DNA of 64,000 bases from Gammaproteobacteria bacterium (GTDB lineage Bacteria > Pseudomonadota > Gammaproteobacteria > Eutrophobiales > Eutrophobiaceae), in contig OZ220696.1 of the NCBI GenBank assembly GCA_965116495.1, forward strand, positions 864,001 to 928,000, read 5' to 3'. The first letter of the stretch is position 1, and each line of letters begins with the position of its first letter. Both the position numbers and the translations under genes were made by a program. The notes beneath the pieces are model-generated. The model was given only the letters and a program-made list of their open reading frames with translations, searched no databases and was not told where the DNA came from. This document shows, in pieces, positions 18,803-35,298 of this stretch.

Positions 18803-18942
18803 TGGGAATTACGAATTAGGAATGAATAGTTCATCTGCAGCGGAACTTGATCAACACCCTTGCCCCTCCAATTCGTGATAAAGACAACAAAGCCAGAACA
18901 TCCTCAGTGGGTTGTAAGTATTGCTTTAGCCTGATAACTATA

Positions 18943-18971
18943 GTATGATTTTCTGTAACAGTAATTCATAC
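18943..18971. promoter_or_regulatory. Palindromic operator of the TA operon
   Basis: GTATGATTTTCTG-TAA-CAGTAATTCATAC overlapping the TATAGT -10-like box. Confidence 0.6.
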
Positions 18972-18980
18972 GAGAAAATC

Positions 18981-19196
18981 ATGAGAATTTCTGAACGAGG
19001 CCAGATTACCATTCCCAAGCAGCTGAGAGACCGCTTCGGCATGGGCTGTAACGTCGAGGTCGAGATTACTCCGACCGATGACGGCCTGCTCATCCGGAAA
19101 CAAACAGCTTCTCAACACCCGGTAGAACGGGTGTACGCTATCCTGGGACGCGACGGCAATACTGACGATTACATTGAAGAAATCCGCGGAAGGTGA
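18981..19196 (+). CDS. AbrB/MazE/SpoVT-family antitoxin (VapB-like)
   Basis: MRISERGQITIPKQLRDRFG swapped-hairpin motif; GTGA overlap with PIN toxin. Confidence 0.9.
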   Translation: MRISERGQITIPKQLRDRFGMGCNVEVEITPTDDGLLIRKQTASQHPVERVYAILGRDGNTDDYIEEIRGR

Positions 19197-19588
19197 TCAG
19201 CGCCGTTGACACCAGCGTCCTTCTGGATGTATTTCTCCCGGACAAGCGCCACGGCCCCAGGTCTAAAGAGTGGCTTCGAGACGCCTATGATCGTGGGGCA
19301 ATTCTTGTCTGCGATGTGGTCTATGCGGAACTGGTGTCGGCATTCGAGGGCCGCAGCAAGCTCGACGAAGCGTTGAGAGAAATCAACGTAAAGATCTCTC
19401 CGCTCGATACTTCTATTGCTTATGAGGCCGGATTGCGCTGGTTGCGATACCGCCAAGCTGGCGGACCGAGAACGCGGATTATTACTGACTTCCTGATCGG
19501 CGCCCATGCCACTGCTCTGGCCGATACCTTCATTACCCGAGACCGCGGTTTCTATGAAACTTATTTCCCGGAGTTGAGAGGCTTCTGA
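19193..19588 (+). CDS. PIN-domain toxin (VapC-like)
   Basis: VDTSVLLD, VYAEL, DFLIGAHA, FITRD PIN acidic motifs. Confidence 0.92.
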   Translation: MISAVDTSVLLDVFLPDKRHGPRSKEWLRDAYDRGAILVCDVVYAELVSAFEGRSKLDEALREINVKISPLDTSIAYEAGLRWLRYRQAGGPRTRIITDFLIGAHATALADTFITRDRGFYETYFPELRGF

Positions 19589-22202: not shown

Positions 22203-23525
22203 TCAAAGAGGAAAACGCCCGCTCAGATATAATGGATAACTATGCATGGCCGTTTTATGGTTGATTTCAAGATTTCGGGCGCTCAAGCGTGTTCGATAGG
22301 GTGGGGCATAGCGTCGCGCAAAGACATTAAGACTTTTTAATTTACCGGATTTCCCCGCTTTCACTTCAATCGGCAGAACCTGGCCGTCTGTTTCCAGCAT
22401 GAACTCAACCTCTGCCGTATTGTGCATCCAGCAATAAAGTGTTTTACCACTGGCTTGTGTTAATTCCTGGGCAACAAAATTCTCACAAAACGCGCCCCTG
22501 AACGTCGCAAACAGTTCAGCCCCCGTATATAGCGCAGCGGGTGAGAGCTGGGCCATGGCGCCCAGCAATCCAGTGTCAAACATGTACAGCTTGAACCGGT
22601 TTTCCTGGGCGAATGCCGAAAAAGGCAACTCTCCGGTGCTGGCGATAGGCGTCTTGATGACCAGACCCGCGCCGGCCAGCCAGTCAATGGCGCTGTGCAG
22701 GGTTGGGTAACTCCCTCCGGATACCGCCTTTGACGGCATAAACTTTTTATTTTCTTTGGCAAGCTGTGCCGGTATGGATGAAAATACCGCTAAAATTCGA
22801 TCCGACCTGAGCGGGCCGGCATACTTGGCAAAATCCCGCACGTAGGCATCCAGCAGGTCCCGTTGCCGGGCGCGCGCTTGTTCAAATGCTTCCCGGCGGT
22901 GTGCGCGGTTTCTCCTGTAAACGTCCACCACTTCCGGCAAGCCGCCAATAACAAAATATTCTTTCAGCAGTCTCAGGAGGTTTTCGTGGATAAGCTCCGG
23001 AATTCGGGTGTCCCGGGCAATATCCTGCAAATAAGCGAGCATTCTTGTCTCGCCAATGGCTCCTGCAAACTCCATAAACGACAACGGGTAAAGATCCAGG
23101 AAGGTGGCCTTGCCGACGGGAAAGGAATCGTCCGCGTGGACAAGTCCCAACAACGAACCGGCACAGCAAAGGGCCAGTTCAGGCATTTTCTCACAAAAGT
23201 ACTTGATGCTGGTAAGGGCGCGGGGGCAATCCTGTATTTCATCGAATATGACCAAGTCGGTTTGTATATCAATATCAGCGTCGAGGAAAAACTCCAATGA
23301 CTCGATAATGCCGTTTGGAGACAAAGAGCCTTGGAATAAAGTGTTAAGTTCCGGGTTCTCCTGAAAGTCTGCAACGTGGCAGGCCGGAAAATGCAGTTTG
23401 CCAAATTCCTTCAATATATATGACTTGCCGGTTTGTCTGGCTCCCCTCAGCACAAGCGGTTTCCGTGCAGACGCCTGTTTCCAGGCGATCAGGTCCTGGG
23501 TGATGTCGCGGGTTATGGAATCCAT
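22203..23525 (-). CDS. AAA ATPase with DUF4143 domain
   Basis: GARQTGKS Walker A, FDEIQ Walker B, GGLPE, KLYMFDTGLL, C-terminal EVEF...PIEVK. Confidence 0.9.
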   Translation of the reverse strand: MDSITRDITQDLIAWKQASARKPLVLRGARQTGKSYILKEFGKLHFPACHVADFQENPELNTLFQGSLSPNGIIESLEFFLDADIDIQTDLVIFDEIQDCPRALTSIKYFCEKMPELALCCAGSLLGLVHADDSFPVGKATFLDLYPLSFMEFAGAIGETRMLAYLQDIARDTRIPELIHENLLRLLKEYFVIGGLPEVVDVYRRNRAHRREAFEQARARQRDLLDAYVRDFAKYAGPLRSDRILAVFSSIPAQLAKENKKFMPSKAVSGGSYPTLHSAIDWLAGAGLVIKTPIASTGELPFSAFAQENRFKLYMFDTGLLGAMAQLSPAALYTGAELFATFRGAFCENFVAQELTQASGKTLYCWMHNTAEVEFMLETDGQVLPIEVKAGKSGKLKSLNVFARRYAPPYRTRLSARNLEINHKTAMHSYPLYLSGRFPL

Positions 23526-24390: not shown

Positions 24391-26502
24391 TCATCTCCCC
24401 TCTAAAAAATCCTCAAAAAATTCCGATACCGGTTCAACCCCGGATATCAGCAGGCGATCTCTCGCCCGGGTACAGGCAACGTAGAACAGGTGTCGCTCAG
24501 TTTCATACACTTCGTCCAGTTCGTCTTCATCGGCAACAGTTTCAATGCGCTCCTGTGAGGGCAGAATGTCATCGTCGCAGGCCATCACTACAACAGCCTG
24601 GAATTCCAGGCCTTTTGCCAGATGCATAGTGGCGATGGAGATACGGCCATCCCGGTCTTCCACCCGGTTGGAAAGTTCCAGGGGTGTTTGTTCTGCCAGC
24701 TTGACTACCTCACGGGCACGCGGCAATTCATTGTTGCTGCGTACAAATATGCCAACCTCTTCCGGATTTATCCCGTCCTCTATGATTTTCCGTACCCAGG
24801 CAGCCACTTCTTCGGTTTCCTGGTGGGCGTCATCAAATGTCTTGACTTCAGGTTCGAGGCCGTTGAAAACCGAAATAACGTCCCGCCGGTTTTCCTCGTT
24901 TCCATCCACATCCCTGATGACATCCGGCAGGAGCCGATCAGCTGCTCTCCTGATCTGGTGGGATGTGCGGTAATTGACTTTCAGGGTGTGGGAACGCCCG
25001 CGTATGTCGACACCCAGCGCCTTCCATGAGAAAGGCCGCTGGAAGATACGCTGGCCGATATCGCCGCTGAAGAACAGCGCATCAGGGTTGTCCGCTTTCA
25101 TCGCTGTAAACAGCCTGAGTTCGGGTACGCCCAGGTCCTGGACCTCATCGACAATGATATGGGTAAAAGGTTTATGCTCCTGTGTAGCGAAATATGCCGT
25201 CACCTCTCTGCAAATCTCCGGCCAGGTATGTAGCCCTTGCCTGGTGAGTAACTCCCGACAGCGAGCGAACACCGGCCAGGCTCTTTCCCGTTGTCCTGAA
25301 CTGATGCGGCTGCGGCGTCCGATACGCGGCACGTTCTGGTAGATTTCCAGGCTATCAACCTGCCAGGCATCGATGACATTGCGCCATTCAGAGACAAGAA
25401 ATTGAATGGTGAATTTCGTATTCTCAAGCTCGTTTGCTGCCGTTTCCAGCGCTCGTTTTACCTGTTCTTCCTTAGCAATTCTGGGCGTGCGGCCGAATGC
25501 AAGTGTGTAAAGTTCAATCGCAACCCGCTCGAACGGCAGGATTGTCACATTGGTATTCCCGTTACCGGTCAGCACACTCAACTTATGTTTCAATGCGTTG
25601 GCAAGGGGCAGGGAAAAGGTTGTCAGAAGAACTTTGGCTTGCCTGTCTTTCTGCAAAATCGCAGCAGCGCGGTGCAGTGTCACCACGGTTTTTCCCGTTC
25701 CCGCTGAACCGGACACGCGGGCTGGGCCATTGAATTGCCGATCCACCAGGCGCCGTTGCGAGGGATGGAGGAATATCGCCCATTGTTCCCAGGGGTAAGC
25801 CAGTGCTCGTTCCAGTTCTTCCATATTTTCCATTACCCGAAACCGGCGTTGCGCATCCGGGTGCTCAAAAGGATCGGTTCCGGGAATTACAGGCGCTGGC
25901 TGGGGCAGGGCGCCGGTGCTGACATAGTCGAGCAACGCTTCAGACGCCTCAGCCGGCAGGTGCTCGGCAATGTCGAGAAACCCATCTTCCGAGGCTTGCA
26001 GAATATTCTCAACCCAGTCCTCGGGCACACCGACACCAAGTAACGCTTGTTCTGACAAACTGAAAAATGGACCTGGAAGGTAAGGCTGGTCTGGAGTATC
26101 GGCAACGCTATACGCTAATGTATCCATATCTTCGAAGTAAGGTATTGCAACCTTTTCAACCCGCTCAGGCACCTCAATTACCTGAACAGCGCCGGTTTTA
26201 GGATGGGTTTCAATTCGTCTTCGTTCCGTCCATTGATAGGCTTCATCGTGGTGACCGACATAACATATTAAAAAGCTGTTTTCGGTCTTGTGGACGATTA
26301 CCCGGATGTCCATGTTTACGCTAACAGACCAGAAGTGCGGATCTCTGGAGCCAGAAACACGGTGTAACCGCAAACCAGTCGCTGCTGGGTTTTGCTGCAA
26401 GTCAAAAACCGTAATCTTTGCAGCTTTCTGTTCCTGGCCTTTCAGCTTGTCCAGTGCTTTTGAAAAGCTTTTTGCGATGAGGAACTGCGCCGGTTCGGTC
26501 AC
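24391..26502 (-). CDS. SF1 UvrD-like helicase with N-terminal RelE/ParE-like domain
   Basis: N-terminal SFSKAL.KL...NP...GL.LHRV...FWSV.V..DIRVIV...YVGHHDEAY; GSAGTGKT, VDEVQD, GDIGQRIF, NYRT, AKGLEF, YVACTRARD. Confidence 0.88.
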   Translation of the reverse strand: MTEPAQFLIAKSFSKALDKLKGQEQKAAKITVFDLQQNPAATGLRLHRVSGSRDPHFWSVSVNMDIRVIVHKTENSFLICYVGHHDEAYQWTERRRIETHPKTGAVQVIEVPERVEKVAIPYFEDMDTLAYSVADTPDQPYLPGPFFSLSEQALLGVGVPEDWVENILQASEDGFLDIAEHLPAEASEALLDYVSTGALPQPAPVIPGTDPFEHPDAQRRFRVMENMEELERALAYPWEQWAIFLHPSQRRLVDRQFNGPARVSGSAGTGKTVVTLHRAAAILQKDRQAKVLLTTFSLPLANALKHKLSVLTGNGNTNVTILPFERVAIELYTLAFGRTPRIAKEEQVKRALETAANELENTKFTIQFLVSEWRNVIDAWQVDSLEIYQNVPRIGRRSRISSGQRERAWPVFARCRELLTRQGLHTWPEICREVTAYFATQEHKPFTHIIVDEVQDLGVPELRLFTAMKADNPDALFFSGDIGQRIFQRPFSWKALGVDIRGRSHTLKVNYRTSHQIRRAADRLLPDVIRDVDGNEENRRDVISVFNGLEPEVKTFDDAHQETEEVAAWVRKIIEDGINPEEVGIFVRSNNELPRAREVVKLAEQTPLELSNRVEDRDGRISIATMHLAKGLEFQAVVVMACDDDILPSQERIETVADEDELDEVYETERHLFYVACTRARDRLLISGVEPVSEFFEDFLEGR

Positions 26503-29270
26503 ACTTCAAACACCTTCATCACCTCATCGCCGAAATGGTTAATGACCTTGACGGCAAACCGTCCCGTTGACGGACGCGTAAACGGGCGGGATTTGTCGCG
26601 GTACAAAGTCTCCCAGGCTTCCTTATCGATTTCCGCTTTTAGGCTGGTTTTCAAAGATTTGTAAGGGTCGCCGGCGCCCATGAAATACGCGTGGCGAACA
26701 AAGAAGCTTTCCCTGTTGTAGTCGGTGTCGATAAACCAGGCGGCGATTTCATCTTTGCCGCTTGGGCGCACTTCACTGGTTTTCGGGTCAAATACGTCCA
26801 CTCCCAGAACTTCGACCACGATATTGCCTTCATCATCGAAGTCCCATTCGATATCCGGTTCACCGAAGACGACAAACAGGTTGCCCGATCCGGTATTTTT
26901 CAATTCTTCCGACATATGCAAGTCGGTATTCATCCGTGCTTTCAGGATCGGCAGCGGGCCAAGCTTTGTCAGTTCCGAAGTATGGGCGTCGAAGTTAAAA
27001 CCACAGGCAATCAGAGCATCAAAACGATCGCGTTGGGCTTCACTGGCAGCATTTGCCAGGTCGGACTGCGTAATGGTGCCGTACTCCGGGCCGATGAATA
27101 TGCCGGCCCGTCTTTCGTTACTGCTTTCCGTATAGTGACCGACGGCGGCAATGTATTCTCCAGGCCAACCCTCTATGGTGGAGAAGGTTATCCTGTCTTC
27201 TTTAGCAACCTGTTGAACGCCGGCAGACTTCATATTTTCCAGTACCATCTGCGTAAAATCATTGAGGGGAATGGCCTCACTAACTCCCTCTTGGCCAGTG
27301 TTCTCATCCGAAGCATACGAATAATCGTCATCAGCTGATACCATGCGATGGGGAGATAGGCTTTCCACGGTAAACGGACCGGAAACTCTCACTCTGGTGT
27401 TATCCGTGTATGGCTTATCGTAGAGCGTTTCATAGTCAGCCTTGGCAGCGATGGATGCATCGATCTCCTTTTGTCTGTCAATGCGGGCTTTCCACCATTC
27501 GCTGTGACAGAGTTTAGCTGTCTCCGGCCAACTGTCTTCCTCGTCACGAGGCACCTCCCATTCCTGCCATTCCTGGTGTAGTTCTGCATTGAGTTGTTTA
27601 CGCAAGGGTTCCAGCGTTTCCTGGTATTTTTCCCAGAGCACGTCTATTTCGGCATTGTTGGCAATGGATTTGAGCGTGATGTGGGGCACCCGTTCATAGA
27701 CAAATCCTTGCCGAATATTACCGTAAGTGGGGTCTGATTTGGGTATTGTTTGGGCCAATTCCGCTTCTTTCATTTGGCCTTCCGTGGAATCTCTTAACAG
27801 ATAATAGGGGTAGCGAGCGCCCATAATTCGGGCACGGGCCAGTGCCAGGGCAACGCGTGAGGTATCGATAGTAATCCATCGGCGTCCCCACTGTTCGGCT
27901 ACGTAGGCGGTGGTGCCCGAGCCACAGGTAGGATCGAGGACAAGGTCGCCAGGATCGGTGGTCATAAGGAGGCAACGTTGCACTGTCTTCGTGCCTGTTT
28001 GTACAACATAGATCTTATCGTCTGTGAAGCTTCCAGTACCGGTGTCTCTCCAGAGTTTTGATACTTCTGTTACAGGAAAGTCATCAAGTCGCCGTACGTA
28101 CTGGAGGCTATTTTGTGCAATATGCAATCGATTGGCTTTCTCTAACCTTGATAGACCATTTGTAGTGGTCTTGGACCGAAACCTGTAACTTTTCCCGTCA
28201 AGGTTATACTTGATGTAGGGGTTGCCTTGAGAGGTGATATTGTCTGCTTTATATATAAAATACCCATCTGGAACCTTGTTCTCTGATTTTTCTTCCTTAG
28301 TCATACTCCGGTATTCGCCTCGGGAATCTCGAATCCATGTATAGGTTGATGCGGTTCCATCTTCTCGGTTCTTAGAAAGATAAGGTTGTCTAAACTTAAT
28401 ACAATCAGAGTCCTTGCCGTACCAGAGCAAATAATCGAAACGATCCGCTAAATACTTAGACGATAAACCGCTCGTCTTTACAAATGCCAATTCACCCATG
28501 AAGTTGCTATTTCCAAACACCTCATCCATTACCGCCCGTACCCGGTGAACATTCTCATCCCCAATCTGCACGAATATAGAACCACTCCCCGACAGTAAAT
28601 CTCTTGCCACCGTCAACCGATCGCGCAGGTAGGTCAGGTACGAGTGTATACCATGCTTCCATGTGTCTCGAAATGCCTTCACTTGTTCCGGTTCCCTGGT
28701 AACGTGCTCCATTTTGCTGTCCTTCACATCCCGTGAGCGGGTGGACACCTGCCAGTTGGAATTAAACTTGATGCCGTAGGGCGGATCGATATAAATACAC
28801 TGCACCTTTCCCCGCAGTCCTTCGCGCTCCGCCAGACTTGCCATCACCTGCAGGCTGTCTCCCAGGATCATACGGTTTTGCCAGTTCTGGTCGTGCTGGT
28901 AGAACTCGGTTTTGTCGGCATCCCCCAGGCCGTTGAAATCGGCAAACAGGTCCAGTTCGACAGGTGATTCATCCCGGCGGGAGTCTGCCTGCCGTTTCAG
29001 GTCGTCGATGATCGCCTTGGGATGAATTTTTTCCTGGATGTAGAGGGGTGGCGCTTGCACCACCAGGTCCGACCAGTCCTGTTCGTCCTTGCCGCGCCAG
29101 ACGAGTTGCGGATCCAGGTCTTTATTTCGGCGTTCGTAGCTGACCTGAATTGGAGACTTGTCTGCCTCGTGCAGGGAGGGTTCGTATTCTACGGTGGGAA
29201 TATTCTTTCTCGTGGCTTCCTTGTGAGTAAGAGTTTCTACCTGTTTTGCGGAATGTCGTCTTCTGGGCAT
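26499..29270 (-). CDS. mod: Type III R-M DNA methyltransferase (Mod, beta class)
   Basis: IYIDPPYG motif IV precedes LDPTCGSGTT motif I; C-terminal AVKVINHFGDE. Confidence 0.92.
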   Translation of the reverse strand: MPRRRHSAKQVETLTHKEATRKNIPTVEYEPSLHEADKSPIQVSYERRNKDLDPQLVWRGKDEQDWSDLVVQAPPLYIQEKIHPKAIIDDLKRQADSRRDESPVELDLFADFNGLGDADKTEFYQHDQNWQNRMILGDSLQVMASLAEREGLRGKVQCIYIDPPYGIKFNSNWQVSTRSRDVKDSKMEHVTREPEQVKAFRDTWKHGIHSYLTYLRDRLTVARDLLSGSGSIFVQIGDENVHRVRAVMDEVFGNSNFMGELAFVKTSGLSSKYLADRFDYLLWYGKDSDCIKFRQPYLSKNREDGTASTYTWIRDSRGEYRSMTKEEKSENKVPDGYFIYKADNITSQGNPYIKYNLDGKSYRFRSKTTTNGLSRLEKANRLHIAQNSLQYVRRLDDFPVTEVSKLWRDTGTGSFTDDKIYVVQTGTKTVQRCLLMTTDPGDLVLDPTCGSGTTAYVAEQWGRRWITIDTSRVALALARARIMGARYPYYLLRDSTEGQMKEAELAQTIPKSDPTYGNIRQGFVYERVPHITLKSIANNAEIDVLWEKYQETLEPLRKQLNAELHQEWQEWEVPRDEEDSWPETAKLCHSEWWKARIDRQKEIDASIAAKADYETLYDKPYTDNTRVRVSGPFTVESLSPHRMVSADDDYSYASDENTGQEGVSEAIPLNDFTQMVLENMKSAGVQQVAKEDRITFSTIEGWPGEYIAAVGHYTESSNERRAGIFIGPEYGTITQSDLANAASEAQRDRFDALIACGFNFDAHTSELTKLGPLPILKARMNTDLHMSEELKNTGSGNLFVVFGEPDIEWDFDDEGNIVVEVLGVDVFDPKTSEVRPSGKDEIAAWFIDTDYNRESFFVRHAYFMGAGDPYKSLKTSLKAEIDKEAWETLYRDKSRPFTRPSTGRFAVKVINHFGDEVMKVFEV

Positions 29271-29285
29271 TTGCTGTGGCGTCAG

Positions 29286-29720
29286 TCACTGATTCCGATA
29301 AGCCCTGATTTCATTTCGGACGTCGTCTTCCGTGATGTCATTCTCCAATGTCCGTTTTTTGCCATAGGAATAAATCTCCTCCCACACGGCCTGACGCGAC
29401 GAAAAGTGGTAGACCCCGATCTCAGGCCTGGTTTTTAACATTGATACCACTTTGGGTATCAGTGGTTCCAAATCCTGAACGCGGGTACGGTATGAAACAA
29501 GAACAATGATAGTGACGGGTAGGGTATCCGGATTCTGTTGATATTCCATGCTCCTGTCCGTTGTAACGAGAACATCAAAACCCTGCCGGCTTGCAAGTGC
29601 CAATAATGATCCGTTCTTTATTCCGGCCCAGCCCATTTGAGGCACTGTTCTGATGTAAAATGTATCAGGGAAACTACGGGCCAAACGTCGGGGGACGGAC
29701 TCGTCAAAGAGTAATTTCAT
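29286..29720 (-). CDS. DUF5615 PIN-like toxin with extended C-terminal tail
   Basis: MKLLFDESVP, GW.GIKNG.LL, VLVTTD...YQQN; paired with upstream DUF433. Confidence 0.85.
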   Translation of the reverse strand: MKLLFDESVPRRLARSFPDTFYIRTVPQMGWAGIKNGSLLALASRQGFDVLVTTDRSMEYQQNPDTLPVTIIVLVSYRTRVQDLEPLIPKVVSMLKTRPEIGVYHFSSRQAVWEEIYSYGKKRTLENDITEDDVRNEIRAYRNQ

Positions 29721-29949
29721 CTCCCTGATTGGCGAATTGGTCGAGGGCCAATTTGATAGTCTGGATAGCCTGACTACGGGTCACACTGGGAAAATTGTCA
29801 AGAAAATCATCGAGGCGGTCACCTGCTTCAAGGTGTTCCGATAGTATGCGTACAGGTACTCGCGTACCGGCGAAAACAGGCGTTCCTCCCAGGACCTCCG
29901 GGTCACAGGTAACAACCGAATGATATATCTGCGGATTCTGCTTGTCCAT
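29704..29949 (-). CDS. DUF433 family antitoxin
   Basis: DPEVLGGTPVFAGTRVPV...L..G..LDDFL.NFPSVT. Confidence 0.9.
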   Translation of the reverse strand: MDKQNPQIYHSVVTCDPEVLGGTPVFAGTRVPVRILSEHLEAGDRLDDFLDNFPSVTRSQAIQTIKLALDQFANQGDEITL

Positions 29950-30002
29950 GACGCCAATTATAGTACAACCAACACCTGTTCAACAATAAAGATATCCTAT
30001 GC

Positions 30003-33000
30003 TCACTGCTTGTCATATTCAGCGTCACCTGTATTATCCCATAGCTTGTTTAATCGCGCTTCCGGCGCGGCCATTGCTGCTTTGGTCAAGTTTATGGACT
30101 CGGTATGGTTAACCATCTCATTGAAGGCTACCTTGATTTTTTCCGTGAGGTCACTTTCCATCGCATAGACATCGGAAAGCTCTGCAAAATCCCAGCGGCC
30201 GAAGCTGCCCAGGTTGTTGACACCGACCAGCCATTGGGTGCGCATGGTCTCAGACTTCAGTTTGACATTTTCGTGCCTGTAGCCTTTGATCTCTACGATC
30301 AAATGCAGGGGATCATCCAGCCCATTTCCGTCATCAATCAAGATGATAAAGTCGGGAATGTAAAGCCGTGCCGTTGAGCCATCCTTGTATGGAACGTCAA
30401 AGCCCAGCCCCTGGTTTTTAACGTAAGAGATTACCTTGGGATGTTGTTCCACCACCCGGGCAAACTCGGCTTCCCAGCCGCTATCGACAACTACGTAGTT
30501 TATATGACACTTGTCCGGTGCCGTCCCATATACCTTTTTGGTCGTATGGAAATTGACATGGGCTGTGGAGGATGCCGGGTTGTAGGGATCAAGCACTGCG
30601 CGAATTCTGTTTTTGTCCGGCATGGCGTCCACCATGGCGTTGTAGATACGCTCACAGGCCTGGTCCGCGATATCCCGGTATTCCAGCATCCACTTACCGG
30701 TGTTGCCTTTGCACTTGAGGTAGCCGCCGTCAATCCACTGGCGAGCGATACGTTTTATATCCCCAAACAGGTGCATTTTGGGTTGTTGGTCTTTGTCCCT
30801 GAAGTACTTGTAAAGCAGGTGTTTGGACAAGTCAAAAGCGATGGTGCTGGGGCGCTTGGCGCGGGCCTCTGCCGCGGAAATTGTCTCGCCTTTGCCGACA
30901 ATTCCCTCCATACGGGTCTCACCCGGACCTACCATCTCCGGAGTCAGTTCCAGTTTCGAGTCTTCAGTGAAATTTGCGCTCAGCTTGTGCCTGGGCAACT
31001 CCACCCGGTATCCGGTGACTCGCGGAAAGGTGATTTCCAACGCCGCACGTTCACGGACGGCGTGAACGTGTGTCCTGGGTGGTGGCGGTGGTGGTGGCGG
31101 TATGGGTGGCTGCTTCGCGGTGAAACTGAACGGAATGCCCATGATGTCGGCGTATTCCACCGGCAGCAGTTCATCGTCATCCAGCTCGTAAGAGTAACGG
31201 CGCAAGCTGCGCCCGACGACCTGCTCGCACAGCAACTGGGTACCGAACGCCCGAATACCGAGGATATGGGTGACCGTATTGGCGTCCCAGCCTTCCGTCA
31301 GCATGGCAACGGAAACCACGCAGCGCACCTGTTCACCCAGGCGGCCCCTCTTGCCGATAGTGTTCATCACTTCGCGCAGCAGTTCCGCATCTGACAGGTT
31401 ATCCGCGCTGCCGGCGCCGTCGCGTATGGCTTTTTCGCGTTTGAACTGTTCGATCTCGAGCGCCGCTGCCTTGCGGAAATTTGTATCCAGCGCCTCGCCC
31501 GATTCAATCTGCTTGCTGTCGATCAGCAGGGTATTGGGGCGGGGCAGACGGTCGCCGTTTTCATCAAAGTTCCGAAACAATGCCAAATGACCATTCTGCG
31601 CGAATACATCTTCACCATCTTCGTCAGGCCGCTGCCAGCCGGATATCCATTCATAGACCAGTCTGGATGTCGTCGTGTTGTTGCAGACCACGATGAATAC
31701 GGGTGGAGTGTCTATGCCGGCCTGCTTCCAGCGCTCGTGGGTTTTCCCATAATGGCTGTACAGTGTATGCAGTGCAGTCTGGAGCTTATCCGGCAAGGCA
31801 AGCGGGTCGCCTCCTGTCTGCCGACCTTTTTTGGGCATGTCCTTACCTATGTGTTTCCAAAGGTCGCGAAAAACCGGAAAGTCTTCGGTCAGGATGTTAT
31901 CGGACACAGGCACCCGGGGCAGTTTGACGATGCCGCACTCGATGGCATCCATGAGGGAAAAATCACTGACTGTCCAGGGGAACAGGGTTCCCTCAGCCCA
32001 GCCGGAGCCGCGCAGGAAAAACGGCGTTGCGGACAGGTCATAGATGGCGCGCACGCCAAGTTTGCGCTTGAAAGTCTCTATGCCACTGAGCCAGACGCGG
32101 GCCGCCTCGTTCTCATTTTTGGCCTCCTTTTTCTCGTCGGACTTGAGCGCGGCGATATCCTTATTGCCGGGTTTCTCCCGGTAACAGTGATGCGCCTCGT
32201 CGTTGATGACGACGATGTTTTTCAATCCCATTAATTTATCGGCGACACGCCGAATCATCTGCCCTTCGGTCTCGGTTGTGTGTAAGGTCTGCTCGCGGCC
32301 CCGCAGCAGGGACTTGCCGACCTTGCCGGTGTCCATGACTTCGCGCAGTTGGAACGTGTGGTAATTGGTAATGATGATGCGGGCCTTGTTGATCTCGTCC
32401 AGCATATCCACCGGGACCAGTTCCCGGGCCTTGTAATAGCTGTCCGGGTCGTTAGGCTGCAATATCCGCAACCGGTCGCGAATGGTAATTCCCGGAGTCA
32501 CGATCAGGAAGCCCCGGCTAAAGAGCCTGCTGCCGGGCGTGCGCACTGCGTTGACCGTCTGCCAGGCAATCAGCATCGCCATTACCGTTGTCTTGCCCGA
32601 GCCGGTGGCCATCTTCAGCGCCAGCCGCAATAGTTCCGGGTTGGCTTGAAGGTTAGCGTCCTGTATGTAGTTCCAGATGCCTTTGTGCCGCTTTTGCCGA
32701 CGCGCGACTTCCGTCAACCAGATAAGGGTTTCCATAGCCTCTATCTGGCAGAAAAACGGGCGTATGCTCTGAAATTGATAATCCCGCCAGTGTCGCAGCA
32801 ACCGCGCCGTGGCCGGTGTTACTCCCCAATCCTGCTGATTATGCAACCGGCGCCAGTCCGATACATGGGAACGAATCTCATTGATAATGGGAAACGGGTT
32901 GTATGCCTGTTCGTCCGATGAAAGCCCCTCATCATAAGAGAATGCAAGGCCAACCTGTTCCTGGGCGTCCTGCTGATGGCGCAACCTGGGTTGGGGAACG

Positions 33001-33140
33001 GGGCTGATCAACTCGGAGCGACGACGGCCGCTGACAGGCGGACCATCCACGGGTTGGCCTGTTTCATTCAGACGATGATGCAGCCGGGGCTCCTCGTAGG
33101 GCGAATTCAGGACAGGTTTTTCGTAAAATGATTCAGCCAT
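30003..33140 (-). CDS. res: Type III R-M restriction subunit (Res)
   Basis: MATGSGKT, NDEAHHCY, DLSATP, MLTEGWD, EQVVGR and C-terminal YIPDF...VEIKG nuclease motif. Confidence 0.92.
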   Translation of the reverse strand: MAESFYEKPVLNSPYEEPRLHHRLNETGQPVDGPPVSGRRRSELISPVPQPRLRHQQDAQEQVGLAFSYDEGLSSDEQAYNPFPIINEIRSHVSDWRRLHNQQDWGVTPATARLLRHWRDYQFQSIRPFFCQIEAMETLIWLTEVARRQKRHKGIWNYIQDANLQANPELLRLALKMATGSGKTTVMAMLIAWQTVNAVRTPGSRLFSRGFLIVTPGITIRDRLRILQPNDPDSYYKARELVPVDMLDEINKARIIITNYHTFQLREVMDTGKVGKSLLRGREQTLHTTETEGQMIRRVADKLMGLKNIVVINDEAHHCYREKPGNKDIAALKSDEKKEAKNENEAARVWLSGIETFKRKLGVRAIYDLSATPFFLRGSGWAEGTLFPWTVSDFSLMDAIECGIVKLPRVPVSDNILTEDFPVFRDLWKHIGKDMPKKGRQTGGDPLALPDKLQTALHTLYSHYGKTHERWKQAGIDTPPVFIVVCNNTTTSRLVYEWISGWQRPDEDGEDVFAQNGHLALFRNFDENGDRLPRPNTLLIDSKQIESGEALDTNFRKAAALEIEQFKREKAIRDGAGSADNLSDAELLREVMNTIGKRGRLGEQVRCVVSVAMLTEGWDANTVTHILGIRAFGTQLLCEQVVGRSLRRYSYELDDDELLPVEYADIMGIPFSFTAKQPPIPPPPPPPPRTHVHAVRERAALEITFPRVTGYRVELPRHKLSANFTEDSKLELTPEMVGPGETRMEGIVGKGETISAAEARAKRPSTIAFDLSKHLLYKYFRDKDQQPKMHLFGDIKRIARQWIDGGYLKCKGNTGKWMLEYRDIADQACERIYNAMVDAMPDKNRIRAVLDPYNPASSTAHVNFHTTKKVYGTAPDKCHINYVVVDSGWEAEFARVVEQHPKVISYVKNQGLGFDVPYKDGSTARLYIPDFIILIDDGNGLDDPLHLIVEIKGYRHENVKLKSETMRTQWLVGVNNLGSFGRWDFAELSDVYAMESDLTEKIKVAFNEMVNHTESINLTKAAMAAPEARLNKLWDNTGDAEYDKQ

Positions 33141-33301: not shown

Positions 33302-34828
33302 TCAACTCTTCCAATCCACCGCCATTTCTTCCCCGATGAACTCGGCAAACGGAATTATATTCTTATGCACGGAAGCCTGCTCTAACGCTTGCATGTATTG
33401 CTCGCGACGTGATCTATCAGATCGAATTATCGTCCAGGGATAACCACCTGACACCAGCATAACGTTCATGAGAAAACGAGCTATCCGTCCGTTGCCATCC
33501 ATGTATGGGTGAATAAAAACAAAGAAGAAATGCCCCAGTATTGCACTGACGATGGGCACAGGTTCGTTAATTAAGCATTCAAAATAAGCATCCAGGGCAT
33601 CAAGTAAGGCCTCTTTCGGTAAGGGAACATGGGCTGAGTCACGAATGTAGACTTGAGCATTTCTATAGCCGGCCAGTTCAGCAGGTTTAATGATGCCGGC
33701 CTGAACGCCAGGCGAAAATAATGCCTGGTACCAGTCTTGTAGATCCTGTTTTACGGTTTCTCCCGCGTGTCCGCCATCGAATACTTTTTGCACACTCTCA
33801 CAGACAACTCTGAATGCGTCAAAATAGCCTTTTGCTGCCATTGCATTACGTTGCTCTGCATCGGATTGAACGGCGTCAGGATTCCATCCGCCGGTTCGAA
33901 CGCGCTCAATCAACTCCGGTGTAACTTCATAGCCTTCAATGGATAAAGAGTGGTAGGCATCATGTCGATATAACTCTTCGATTTCCTTCATGGAAGCAAT
34001 CGAACCTTTCGTCAATTGAGAAGGTTCCGGAAACCGGTTAATAACGGGTTCTCGTATGGCTTGCCATTGTGCGCGAATGCGAGCCGCATAAGGTGAGGTA
34101 ATACGTACCGCCGTCTTTCCAAAAACCGGCTGATTTGCTGCGAAAGGATTCTCAGGTCTTACCTGGTGTCCGGCACTGACCATGCTGCTTTCTATAAATC
34201 GTGCTGCGTCAGCATCGCCTAAAAGACGGTAGGCCCCAATCAGTCGGCCGGCAATGCTGGTGTGTCCACCCATAAGTAATATTCTGACCAACTCTGTCGA
34301 ATCAACCATGCGAAGCGCGATTTCTGCCTTAACGGGTTCATGACGGAACAGGGCAGGTGAACTGCGACATAATGCAGCCGCCAGAGGCAGTGTTTGTATG
34401 CCAAGTCGGATTTCTCTGTTACCTGGCAACTCTGCCGTTTCATATATGAACAGGGAAGTCTGATGCAACAACTCAACTCGGTTACTGCCGCCTGTCGCAG
34501 TCATCACTACTAATTGAGGGGGCAGCGCATTCTTGTCCAGATGAAAATCAAGAGAAGCTTCTGCCGACAGGCAATAATCAACACCAAATCGTTTGTTCAG
34601 GTATTGCTTAATAAAATCCCAGTATGAAGCAAACCAGCGCGTGGATTGACCCTGGTCACCGGGATGACCAAGGATATACCAACCACGGATGACCTGCGTC
34701 AACCAACCGGCTTTGAGCAGACGTTCCCGATGGACGCGTGACAGGTCACTGGAGTGTACGATATTATCCTGTGCCGCTTGTCTGGCCCGCTCCAGGGAAT
34801 TTGCCAGTAAAGTTTCAAATGTAGCCAT
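33302..34828 (-). CDS. Fic family protein with long N-terminal extension
   Basis: HPYMDGNGRIAR Fic motif; YHSLSIEGY. Confidence 0.92.
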   Translation of the reverse strand: MATFETLLANSLERARQAAQDNIVHSSDLSRVHRERLLKAGWLTQVIRGWYILGHPGDQGQSTRWFASYWDFIKQYLNKRFGVDYCLSAEASLDFHLDKNALPPQLVVMTATGGSNRVELLHQTSLFIYETAELPGNREIRLGIQTLPLAAALCRSSPALFRHEPVKAEIALRMVDSTELVRILLMGGHTSIAGRLIGAYRLLGDADAARFIESSMVSAGHQVRPENPFAANQPVFGKTAVRITSPYAARIRAQWQAIREPVINRFPEPSQLTKGSIASMKEIEELYRHDAYHSLSIEGYEVTPELIERVRTGGWNPDAVQSDAEQRNAMAAKGYFDAFRVVCESVQKVFDGGHAGETVKQDLQDWYQALFSPGVQAGIIKPAELAGYRNAQVYIRDSAHVPLPKEALLDALDAYFECLINEPVPIVSAILGHFFFVFIHPYMDGNGRIARFLMNVMLVSGGYPWTIIRSDRSRREQYMQALEQASVHKNIIPFAEFIGEEMAVDWKS

Positions 34829-35038
34829 TACAGTGTTACCTGTATTTGTTGCTGTTACATCCCAATGTTTTAATGTTGTTATATTATTATGTTTTATTGT
34901 TATTACAACACGAAAGGAACTGATATAGATAGTTCGGGTAGAGAATTATGATGGGAGAATTATGATGGGTTGTAAGTATTGCTATAGTCTGATAACTATA
35001 GTATGACTTCCTGAGACAGTAATTCATACGAGAAAATC

Positions 35039-35254
35039 ATGAGAATTTCTGAACGAGGCCAGATTACCATTCCCAAGCAGTTGAGAGACCGCTTCGGCAT
35101 GGGCTGTAACGTCGAGGTCGAGATTACTCCGACCAGTGACGGCCTGCTCATCCGTAAACAAACAGCTTCTCAACACCCGGTAGAACGGGTGTACGCTATC
35201 CTGGGACGCGACGGCAATACTGACGATTACATTGAAGATATCCGCGGAAGGTGA
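35039..35254 (+). CDS. AbrB-family antitoxin, second copy
   Basis: 69/71 aa identical to 18981-19196. Confidence 0.9.
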   Translation: MRISERGQITIPKQLRDRFGMGCNVEVEITPTSDGLLIRKQTASQHPVERVYAILGRDGNTDDYIEDIRGR

Positions 35255-35298
35255 TCAGCGCCGTTGACACCAGCGTCCTCCTGGATGTGTTTCTCCCG
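35251..35298 (+). pseudogene. Truncated PIN toxin (first 16 codons)
   Basis: MISAVDTSVLLDVFLP identical to the toxin at 19193, then unrelated sequence. Confidence 0.9.

Follow-up and report, generated by a model that had tools for sequence, protein, structure and literature searches.

The operon at positions 24,391 to 33,140 of the window, a stretch of 64,000 nucleotides on contig OZ220696.1 of a Gammaproteobacteria bacterium, is a real, conserved variant of Type III restriction-modification (R-M) that carries a third gene of the ArmD family. The open reading frame (ORF) list and the junction sequences show five intact genes, all on the minus strand: res, DUF433, DUF5615, mod and a helicase gene. 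The conserved core is three genes, not five, namely a Res of the BPTD_3080 clade, a Mod and a protein that joins a RelE fold to a UvrD-type motor. We consider it very probable that res, mod and the helicase gene form one functional unit. The parts of the operon are as follows.

30003..33140, minus strand: res, 1045 amino acids (aa), ATG at 33140; first core gene, Type III restriction subunit of the BPTD_3080 family
29704..29949, minus strand: DUF433 (COG2442), predicted antitoxin, 81 aa; cargo in the res-mod slot; PF04255 at E 2e-16
29286..29720, minus strand: DUF5615, PIN-like predicted toxin, 144 aa; cargo; PF18480 at E 2e-8 over residues 1-95
26499..29270, minus strand: mod, Type III adenine methyltransferase, 923 aa; second core gene; PADLOC MTase_III at 1243 bits
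26499..26502, minus strand: GTGA overlap of the mod stop (TGA) and the helicase start (GTG), read from the sequence
24391..26502, minus strand: ArmD-family RelE-UvrD protein (the helicase), 703 aa; third core gene
26224..26490, minus strand: RelE-fold domain of the helicase, residues 5-93; predicted catalytic residues H47, R67 and H85; S61
24403..25782, minus strand: superfamily 1 (SF1) motor of the helicase, residues 241-700; Walker A K271, Walker B D452/E453, motif VI YVACTRA

A Type III core with a third gene

A sequence-only reading of this DNA had described the same five intact, co-oriented genes with the GTGA overlap, and these hold. The translational coupling of mod and helicase that it drew from the overlap stands for this operon only; as a feature of the clade it is ruled out, the gap between the two genes exceeding 200 bp in 53 of 89 loci. 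The operon occurs once in the single-contig genome of 4.34 Mb. Contigs of run X1 match the window without differences at 24854-26744 and 29201-32904; run X1 is possibly the window's own source, so the agreement argues only against gross assembly error. Promoter-like sites are at chance level (10 seen, 11.6 expected).

Both parts of a Type III enzyme are present, as the sequence-only reading had proposed. Res scores 1293.7 bits against the NCBIfam model NF046055 (BPTD_3080; cut-off 800) and combines a superfamily 2 (SF2) motor bearing DEAH with a C-terminal PD-(D/E)xK nuclease; its Walker A GKT, NDE.HH, PD930 and E950xK952 are invariant in all 54 intact three-gene loci. The adjacent Mod consists of DPPY, a variable target-recognition region and DPTCGSG, the S-adenosylmethionine (SAM) motif. 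DPPY is likewise invariant in 54/54, and identity falls to 0.2-0.3 over residues 281-400. The system thus resembles EcoP15I, EcoPI and PstII in the Res motor and nuclease and in the three Mod elements, but differs from them in its res-mod order, in a Mod of ~920 aa with a 440-aa extension and in the near-constant third gene. That extension (Mod residues 480-923, window 26502-27833) is conserved over ~440 aa and found in a helicase-free subclade too; a Pfam search with it gave no family.

The product of the third gene aligns end to end with WP_000218177.1 of E. coli EDL933 (30% identity over 709 columns, E 6e-93), a homology that the sequence-only reading overlooked. WP_000218177.1 is ArmD (Z5902) of ARMADA Type II, and the same sequence is annotated in Table S2 of PMC12458937 (Bell et al.). 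The two proteins share their architecture, length (704 aa for ArmD, 703 here), Walker residues and place as last gene of the operon. They differ in their partners, which are ArmA (SNF2), ArmB (a PglX-like methyltransferase) and ArmC (a YprA helicase) in ARMADA and a Type III Res and Mod here, and at the predicted general base, E in ArmD and H here. In a full-length model, the RelE fold is followed by a beta-hairpin, a disordered linker (115-136), a helical domain (144-240) and the UvrD-type SF1 motor. Foldseek matches the motor to UvrD, PcrA and Rep. Pfam reports UvrD-helicase, AAA_19 and UvrD_C above cut-offs and covers residues 245-688 only. The Walker A motif GSAGTGKT, pointed out earlier from the letters, is confirmed at residues 265-272. 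K271, E453 and R679 are invariant in 81/81 Type III-linked homologs, and K271 and D452 align with K266 and D454 of ArmD. armD was not found in two E. coli ATCC 8739 regions.

Two known systems were rejected as identities of the locus. ARMADA is ruled out: ArmA, ArmB and ArmC are not found upstream, nor is ArmC in any of 32 clade loci. The window's own genome yields no match to ArmA or ArmB and, for ArmC, only a 71-residue match far away. Gabija has a UvrD-like subunit beside a nuclease as well, and PADLOC returns no more than partial GajB-type matches for the helicase, with GajB models fitting the motor at E 1e-25. However, these models leave the first 240 residues uncovered, and the neighbours are Mod and Res, without a GajA-type (OLD-family) nuclease, which rules Gabija out.

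The tie of the helicase to this Res/Mod clade, named in the sequence-only reading as a point to check, is seen from both ends. On the helicase side we took the best 80 of 95 loci; 32 were short or partial, and those with a full-length helicase of at least 40% identity and at least 5 kb of upstream DNA were counted as informative. mod lies upstream in 32/32 informative loci and ArmC in 0/32, whereas 16/16 distant full-length helicase loci have ArmC and lack mod. By record title, the mod-linked loci cover Pseudomonadota, Acidobacteriota, Planctomycetota, Verrucomicrobiota, Chloroflexota and Gemmatimonadota; the nearest relatives among the listed helicase loci are metagenome-assembled genomes of Gammaproteobacteria. 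On the res side we took the best 80 of 590 metagenome loci, 42 of them too short. Among the 38 informative ones the helicase is present in 35 (one fragmentary) and absent within 6-7 kb after mod in three. There is a little overlap between the locus sets, L123 and L145 being the same contig, and related loci do not count as independent.

Likewise, among 401 genomes of the window's phylum the Res family occurs in 28, the helicase family in 26 and both in 17, the window's own genome included. Twenty of 30 other Res places in these genomes were taken, the remaining ten lying at contig ends. Seventeen of the 20 belong to the res-mod-order clade: ten have the helicase, four end too soon and three are without it, one of these intact and two with a broken res or mod. 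The helicase is therefore found in 10/13 informative genome loci and in 10/11 with intact res and mod. The nine helicase-only genomes hold six ARMADA loci, two ArmD-like fragments and one Type III-clade gene at a contig start. Where the helicase seems to be fused to Mod or Res, as in P0078 and P0125 among 150 representatives, a frameshift artefact is the likely reason, and these cases were set aside. The phage collection gave no match at E 1e-20. In L173 (12142-15644) two genes that by eye resemble a SIR2-HerA pair take the helicase's position after mod, a possible replacement.

A midpoint-rooted tree of 114 full-length helicases, from which broken or partial genes were excluded, separates 81 Type III-linked and four unplaced proteins from 26 ARMADA-linked and three unplaced ones, with no mixing. 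In this phylogeny the Type III-linked helicases are placed as a separate sister clade to ARMADA ArmD; the tree has no outgroup, so we claim no direction of transfer. Trees built from 54 intact loci correlate strongly (Mantel r 0.93 for Res-helicase, 0.87 for Res-Mod and 0.82 for Mod-helicase; shuffled maximum 0.21). As judged from these trees, the correlation shows long co-inheritance, not contact. At least ten listed plasmids (H1-H10) bear a Type III-clade helicase, and we take the system to be mobile because of them; in the sole fully annotated case, a Pseudomonas amygdali plasmid, the helicase gene comes after a BPTD_3080 res and mod.

The genes between the core genes behave differently. 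No gene occupies the res-mod slot in 49 of 103 loci, or the mod-helicase slot in 36 of 89; elsewhere the two slots contain 158 ORFs in 99 clusters, the largest with seven members. Pfam assigns 64 cargo representatives to GmrSD, PIN, HNH, Fic, NYN, ABC-ATPases and Bro-N, with many unknowns. Both slots collect defence-type genes, as do the operons with embedded defence genes reported by Payne et al. (10.1101/2024.01.29.577857), whose named hosts in the extract consulted are Hma, BREX, DISARM and Type I R-M and do not include the Type III clade. In the window the DUF433 and DUF5615 genes are adjacent and overlapping, each exceeds its Pfam cut-off, and the two match the definition of the PIN-COG2442 pair, a predicted toxin-antitoxin family pairing (PMC2701414). 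The closest relatives have no DUF433 in the res-mod slot; in five of the six it contains another PIN gene or what is left of one, and in the sixth (L004) a stop-broken DUF5615. On a contig of run X7 the upstream Fic gene is joined to DUF433 and res is absent. Given these varied occupants and the contig without res, the DUF433/DUF5615 pair is a passenger, that is, replaceable cargo. The sequence-only reading had counted it as a layer of the defence; it is not conserved, and slot turnover rules it out as a fixed layer. The DUF5615 ORF has a Pfam-negative tail of ~40 aa beyond the PIN domain (window 29286-29400), perhaps a read-through into an earlier occupant's remnant.

The helicase might itself be such a passenger, a stand-alone defence or addiction gene hitch-hiking at the operon end and independent of Res/Mod. 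Linkage by itself cannot prove function, cargo often separates the helicase from mod (53/89), and a family member on a Thermus plasmid adjoins neither partner. Nevertheless, we find this very improbable. True cargo turns over, whereas the helicase is retained up to 8.6 kb away and persists across six phyla; it tracks Res better than Mod does, and Type III-clade copies away from mod are fragments (L049, L078, L080).

The RelE-fold domain

The N-terminal RelE fold proposed in the sequence-only reading is borne out by structure prediction. An AlphaFold2 model of the domain from 48 aligned sequences reaches pLDDT 88.6, and all its listed Foldseek matches are of the RelE/YafQ/YoeB/ParE/HigB type (best E 3.9e-5). 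The top match, 3BPQ, is also the best RelE match in PMC12458937. Pfam at E<=0.1 matches ParE_like in 31 and HigB-like in 30 of the 48 family members, the window's own falling below the cut-off. Against the PDB by sequence, the single sequence gave no match and a profile reached E 0.07 to YoeB.

A weak profile alignment to E. coli YoeB (probability 47%, E 2e-4) pairs H47 with E46, S61 with R59 and R67 with R65, and a two-residue extension of it by the author pairs H85 with H83. YoeB catalysis uses E46 and H83 (PMC5027501). Position 47 is H in 81/81 Type III-linked and E in 26/26 ARMADA-linked proteins, and H85 is invariant in both sets. R67 is kept in 80/81 and 26/26, and R61 in 79/81 Type III-linked proteins, the window's S61 being one of two exceptions. 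A further 150 representatives retain H85 in 147 cases and R67 in 148. In six close sequences dN/dS is ~0.12 for RelE domain and motor alike and 0.29 for the linker, from pooled pairs with synonymous sites near saturation. Together these comparisons suggest that YoeB-type catalytic positions are conserved in the domain, and mRNase activity is predicted. No conserved antitoxin gene stands beside the helicase: the mod-helicase distance is below 200 bp in 36/89 loci, and no slot gene is conserved.

Alternatively, the helicase may unwind or strip cut DNA for Res, with the RelE fold serving as a non-catalytic binding or docking module. The non-abortive character of ARMADA defence (PMC12458937) would suit this. 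So would the loss of R61 in the window's copy and the model, in which the chain continues after H85, where YoeB ends, into a helix and a conserved hairpin (identity 0.75) that could bar the ribosomal A site. We regard such a motor-only role as unlikely, in that the invariant positions are the catalytic ones, the H/E exchange at position 47 swaps general bases and H85 is so widely kept.

Proposed role of the third protein

In Type III systems Mod methylates one strand of the site, and a Res1Mod2 complex cuts unmethylated DNA using ATP. The reading that we favour, tentatively and at somewhat less than an even chance, is a three-gene Type III variant in which the helicase is a core partner with an mRNase triggered by cut DNA and usually not lethal. 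Unmethylated foreign DNA would be cut by Res, and the helicase motor would load onto the ends or single-stranded DNA that Res leaves. To judge from ArmD, the motor would be required for full restriction. Engagement of DNA by the motor would switch on the predicted YoeB-like mRNase, which would hold translation down during destruction of the invader; the cell itself would usually not die. At rest the RNase would inhibit itself, since no antitoxin gene is conserved beside the helicase.

Res/Mod and ArmABC have in common a DNA-cutting SF2 motor and a methylase, not sequence. The ArmD module serves both alike, which makes cut or unwound DNA a more likely common input than a protein surface; this shared input is our reason for preferring a motor that acts on Res products, with an RNase turned on when it does so. 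In ARMADA, deletion of armD or the K266A change abolished defence and D454N lowered it, and infected cells stayed intact and viable, the defence being reported as non-abortive (PMC12458937). As we read them, these data favour a core partner over the abortive backup put forward in the sequence-only reading.

A guard resembling PrrC would act otherwise: intact Res and Mod would hold the helicase off, and inhibition or escape by a phage would free the RelE RNase and abort the infection. We rate it as rather unlikely. The conserved RNase residues and the missing antitoxin fit it, as does the fact that an intact helicase was never seen without mod where the DNA suffices (32/32). RNases fused to R-M helicases have been proposed to act thus (PMC3710099), and the partial phenotype of an EDL933 armD deletion (10.1101/2025.09.22.677730) points the same way. 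Set against this is the requirement for ArmD and its Walker A in ordinary non-abortive ARMADA defence (PMC12458937). A shared DNA trigger also fits a family that serves unrelated machines better than a shared protein guard does. PrrC itself is an ABC-ATPase/HEPN protein found with Type I R-M, and its fold is unrelated.

PrrC (EcoprrI), CnuH of CoCoNuT and Cami1 (CARF-RelE) resemble the helicase in coupling an RNase to an NTPase or sensor within a defence locus. Cami1 is among the Foldseek matches, but responds to cyclic oligoadenylate. CnuH, too, is an SF1 helicase preceded by a RelE-like domain (PMC11090510); it differs in belonging to McrBC systems and in a domain without recognisable conservation.

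Several points weigh against the core-partner reading. In classical Type III enzymes Res1Mod2 is enough on its own (PMC4005696). The mod-res-order subclade, whose Res is 30-33% identical, has the helicase in 0/3 loci, and at least four loci with intact res and mod (L115, L173, L199 and L208) have none within 6-9 kb. Between 6 and 14 supported splits conflict among the Res, Mod and helicase trees, and co-travelling neighbours co-diverge without joint function. The evidence from ArmD comes from a protein only 30% identical by alignment, which works with unrelated partners; an EDL933 armD deletion was less affected than other arm deletions (10.1101/2025.09.22.677730), and the mutants in section 6 of PMC12458937 do not include ArmD RelE residues. 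The catalytic assignment leans on the weak YoeB alignment, on the extension that pairs H85 and on a domain whose window copy has lost R61. An active mRNase is an awkward fit for a defence that is non-abortive, and the activities of Res, Mod and helicase are all predictions from sequence. A complex prediction of Mod 480-923 with helicase 1-510 scored 0.00 and was used neither for nor against.

A broader claim would be that the clade is an undescribed common Type III subtype with ArmD as obligatory third subunit, a portable cut-DNA-sensing RNase-helicase comparable to SLFN11 that couples cleavage to translation shut-off. We hold this to be doubtful, though possible; SLFN11 and PrrC enter here as analogies. 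If it is true, ArmD would plug into unrelated restriction machines and link DNA cleavage to translation shut-off.

Full-text searches, which do not reach subscription papers or bioRxiv supplements and in which most hits were judged from listings, turned up no account of operons of res, mod and an ArmD-like gene and no paper with BPTD_3080. Extracts of PMC7251935, PMC7285500, PMC7522526 and PMC12065111 do not describe the three-gene system. A prior bioinformatic mention of an association between RelE-SF1 helicases and R-M is possible. Anantharaman and Aravind (2003, Genome Biol 4:R81) reportedly gave the name Z5902 to a family in which RelE is fused to SF1 helicases, and associated this family with restriction-modification neighbourhoods. 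Type III R-M is usually treated as a two-gene system, and here a clade in at least six phyla keeps a third enzyme, which annotation tools call merely UvrD or a GajB fragment. The three-gene setting, with its well-understood restriction core, offers a chance to learn the role of ArmD that the ARMADA work left open, and raises the question of whether a RelE RNase can take part in immunity that does not kill the cell. Candidate defence genes can also be drawn from the two internal slots of the operon.

Neighbouring genes and other settings of the family

The operon is flanked on its own strand by two genes of defence type, one for an AAA_14/DUF4143 ATPase (22203-23525; PADLOC PDC-S01, 466 bits) and one for a Fic protein of 508 aa (33302-34828). 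A stretch of 16 kb with the R-M operon in it lies between the two copies of a 333-bp direct repeat (96%; 18908-19240 and 34966-35298) made up of an abrB antitoxin gene and the beginning of vapC; of the two vapC genes the second is truncated, and the genome holds no further copy of the repeat. A family match in Allomeiothermus has an ARMADA-like setting. A third setting of the RelE-UvrD family is found on the Thermus oshimai plasmid NC_019387.1 (7045-22167), where the order is vWA, tubulin-like, hypothetical, BrxL-like ATPase, RelE-UvrD and a large RecQ/exonuclease fusion.

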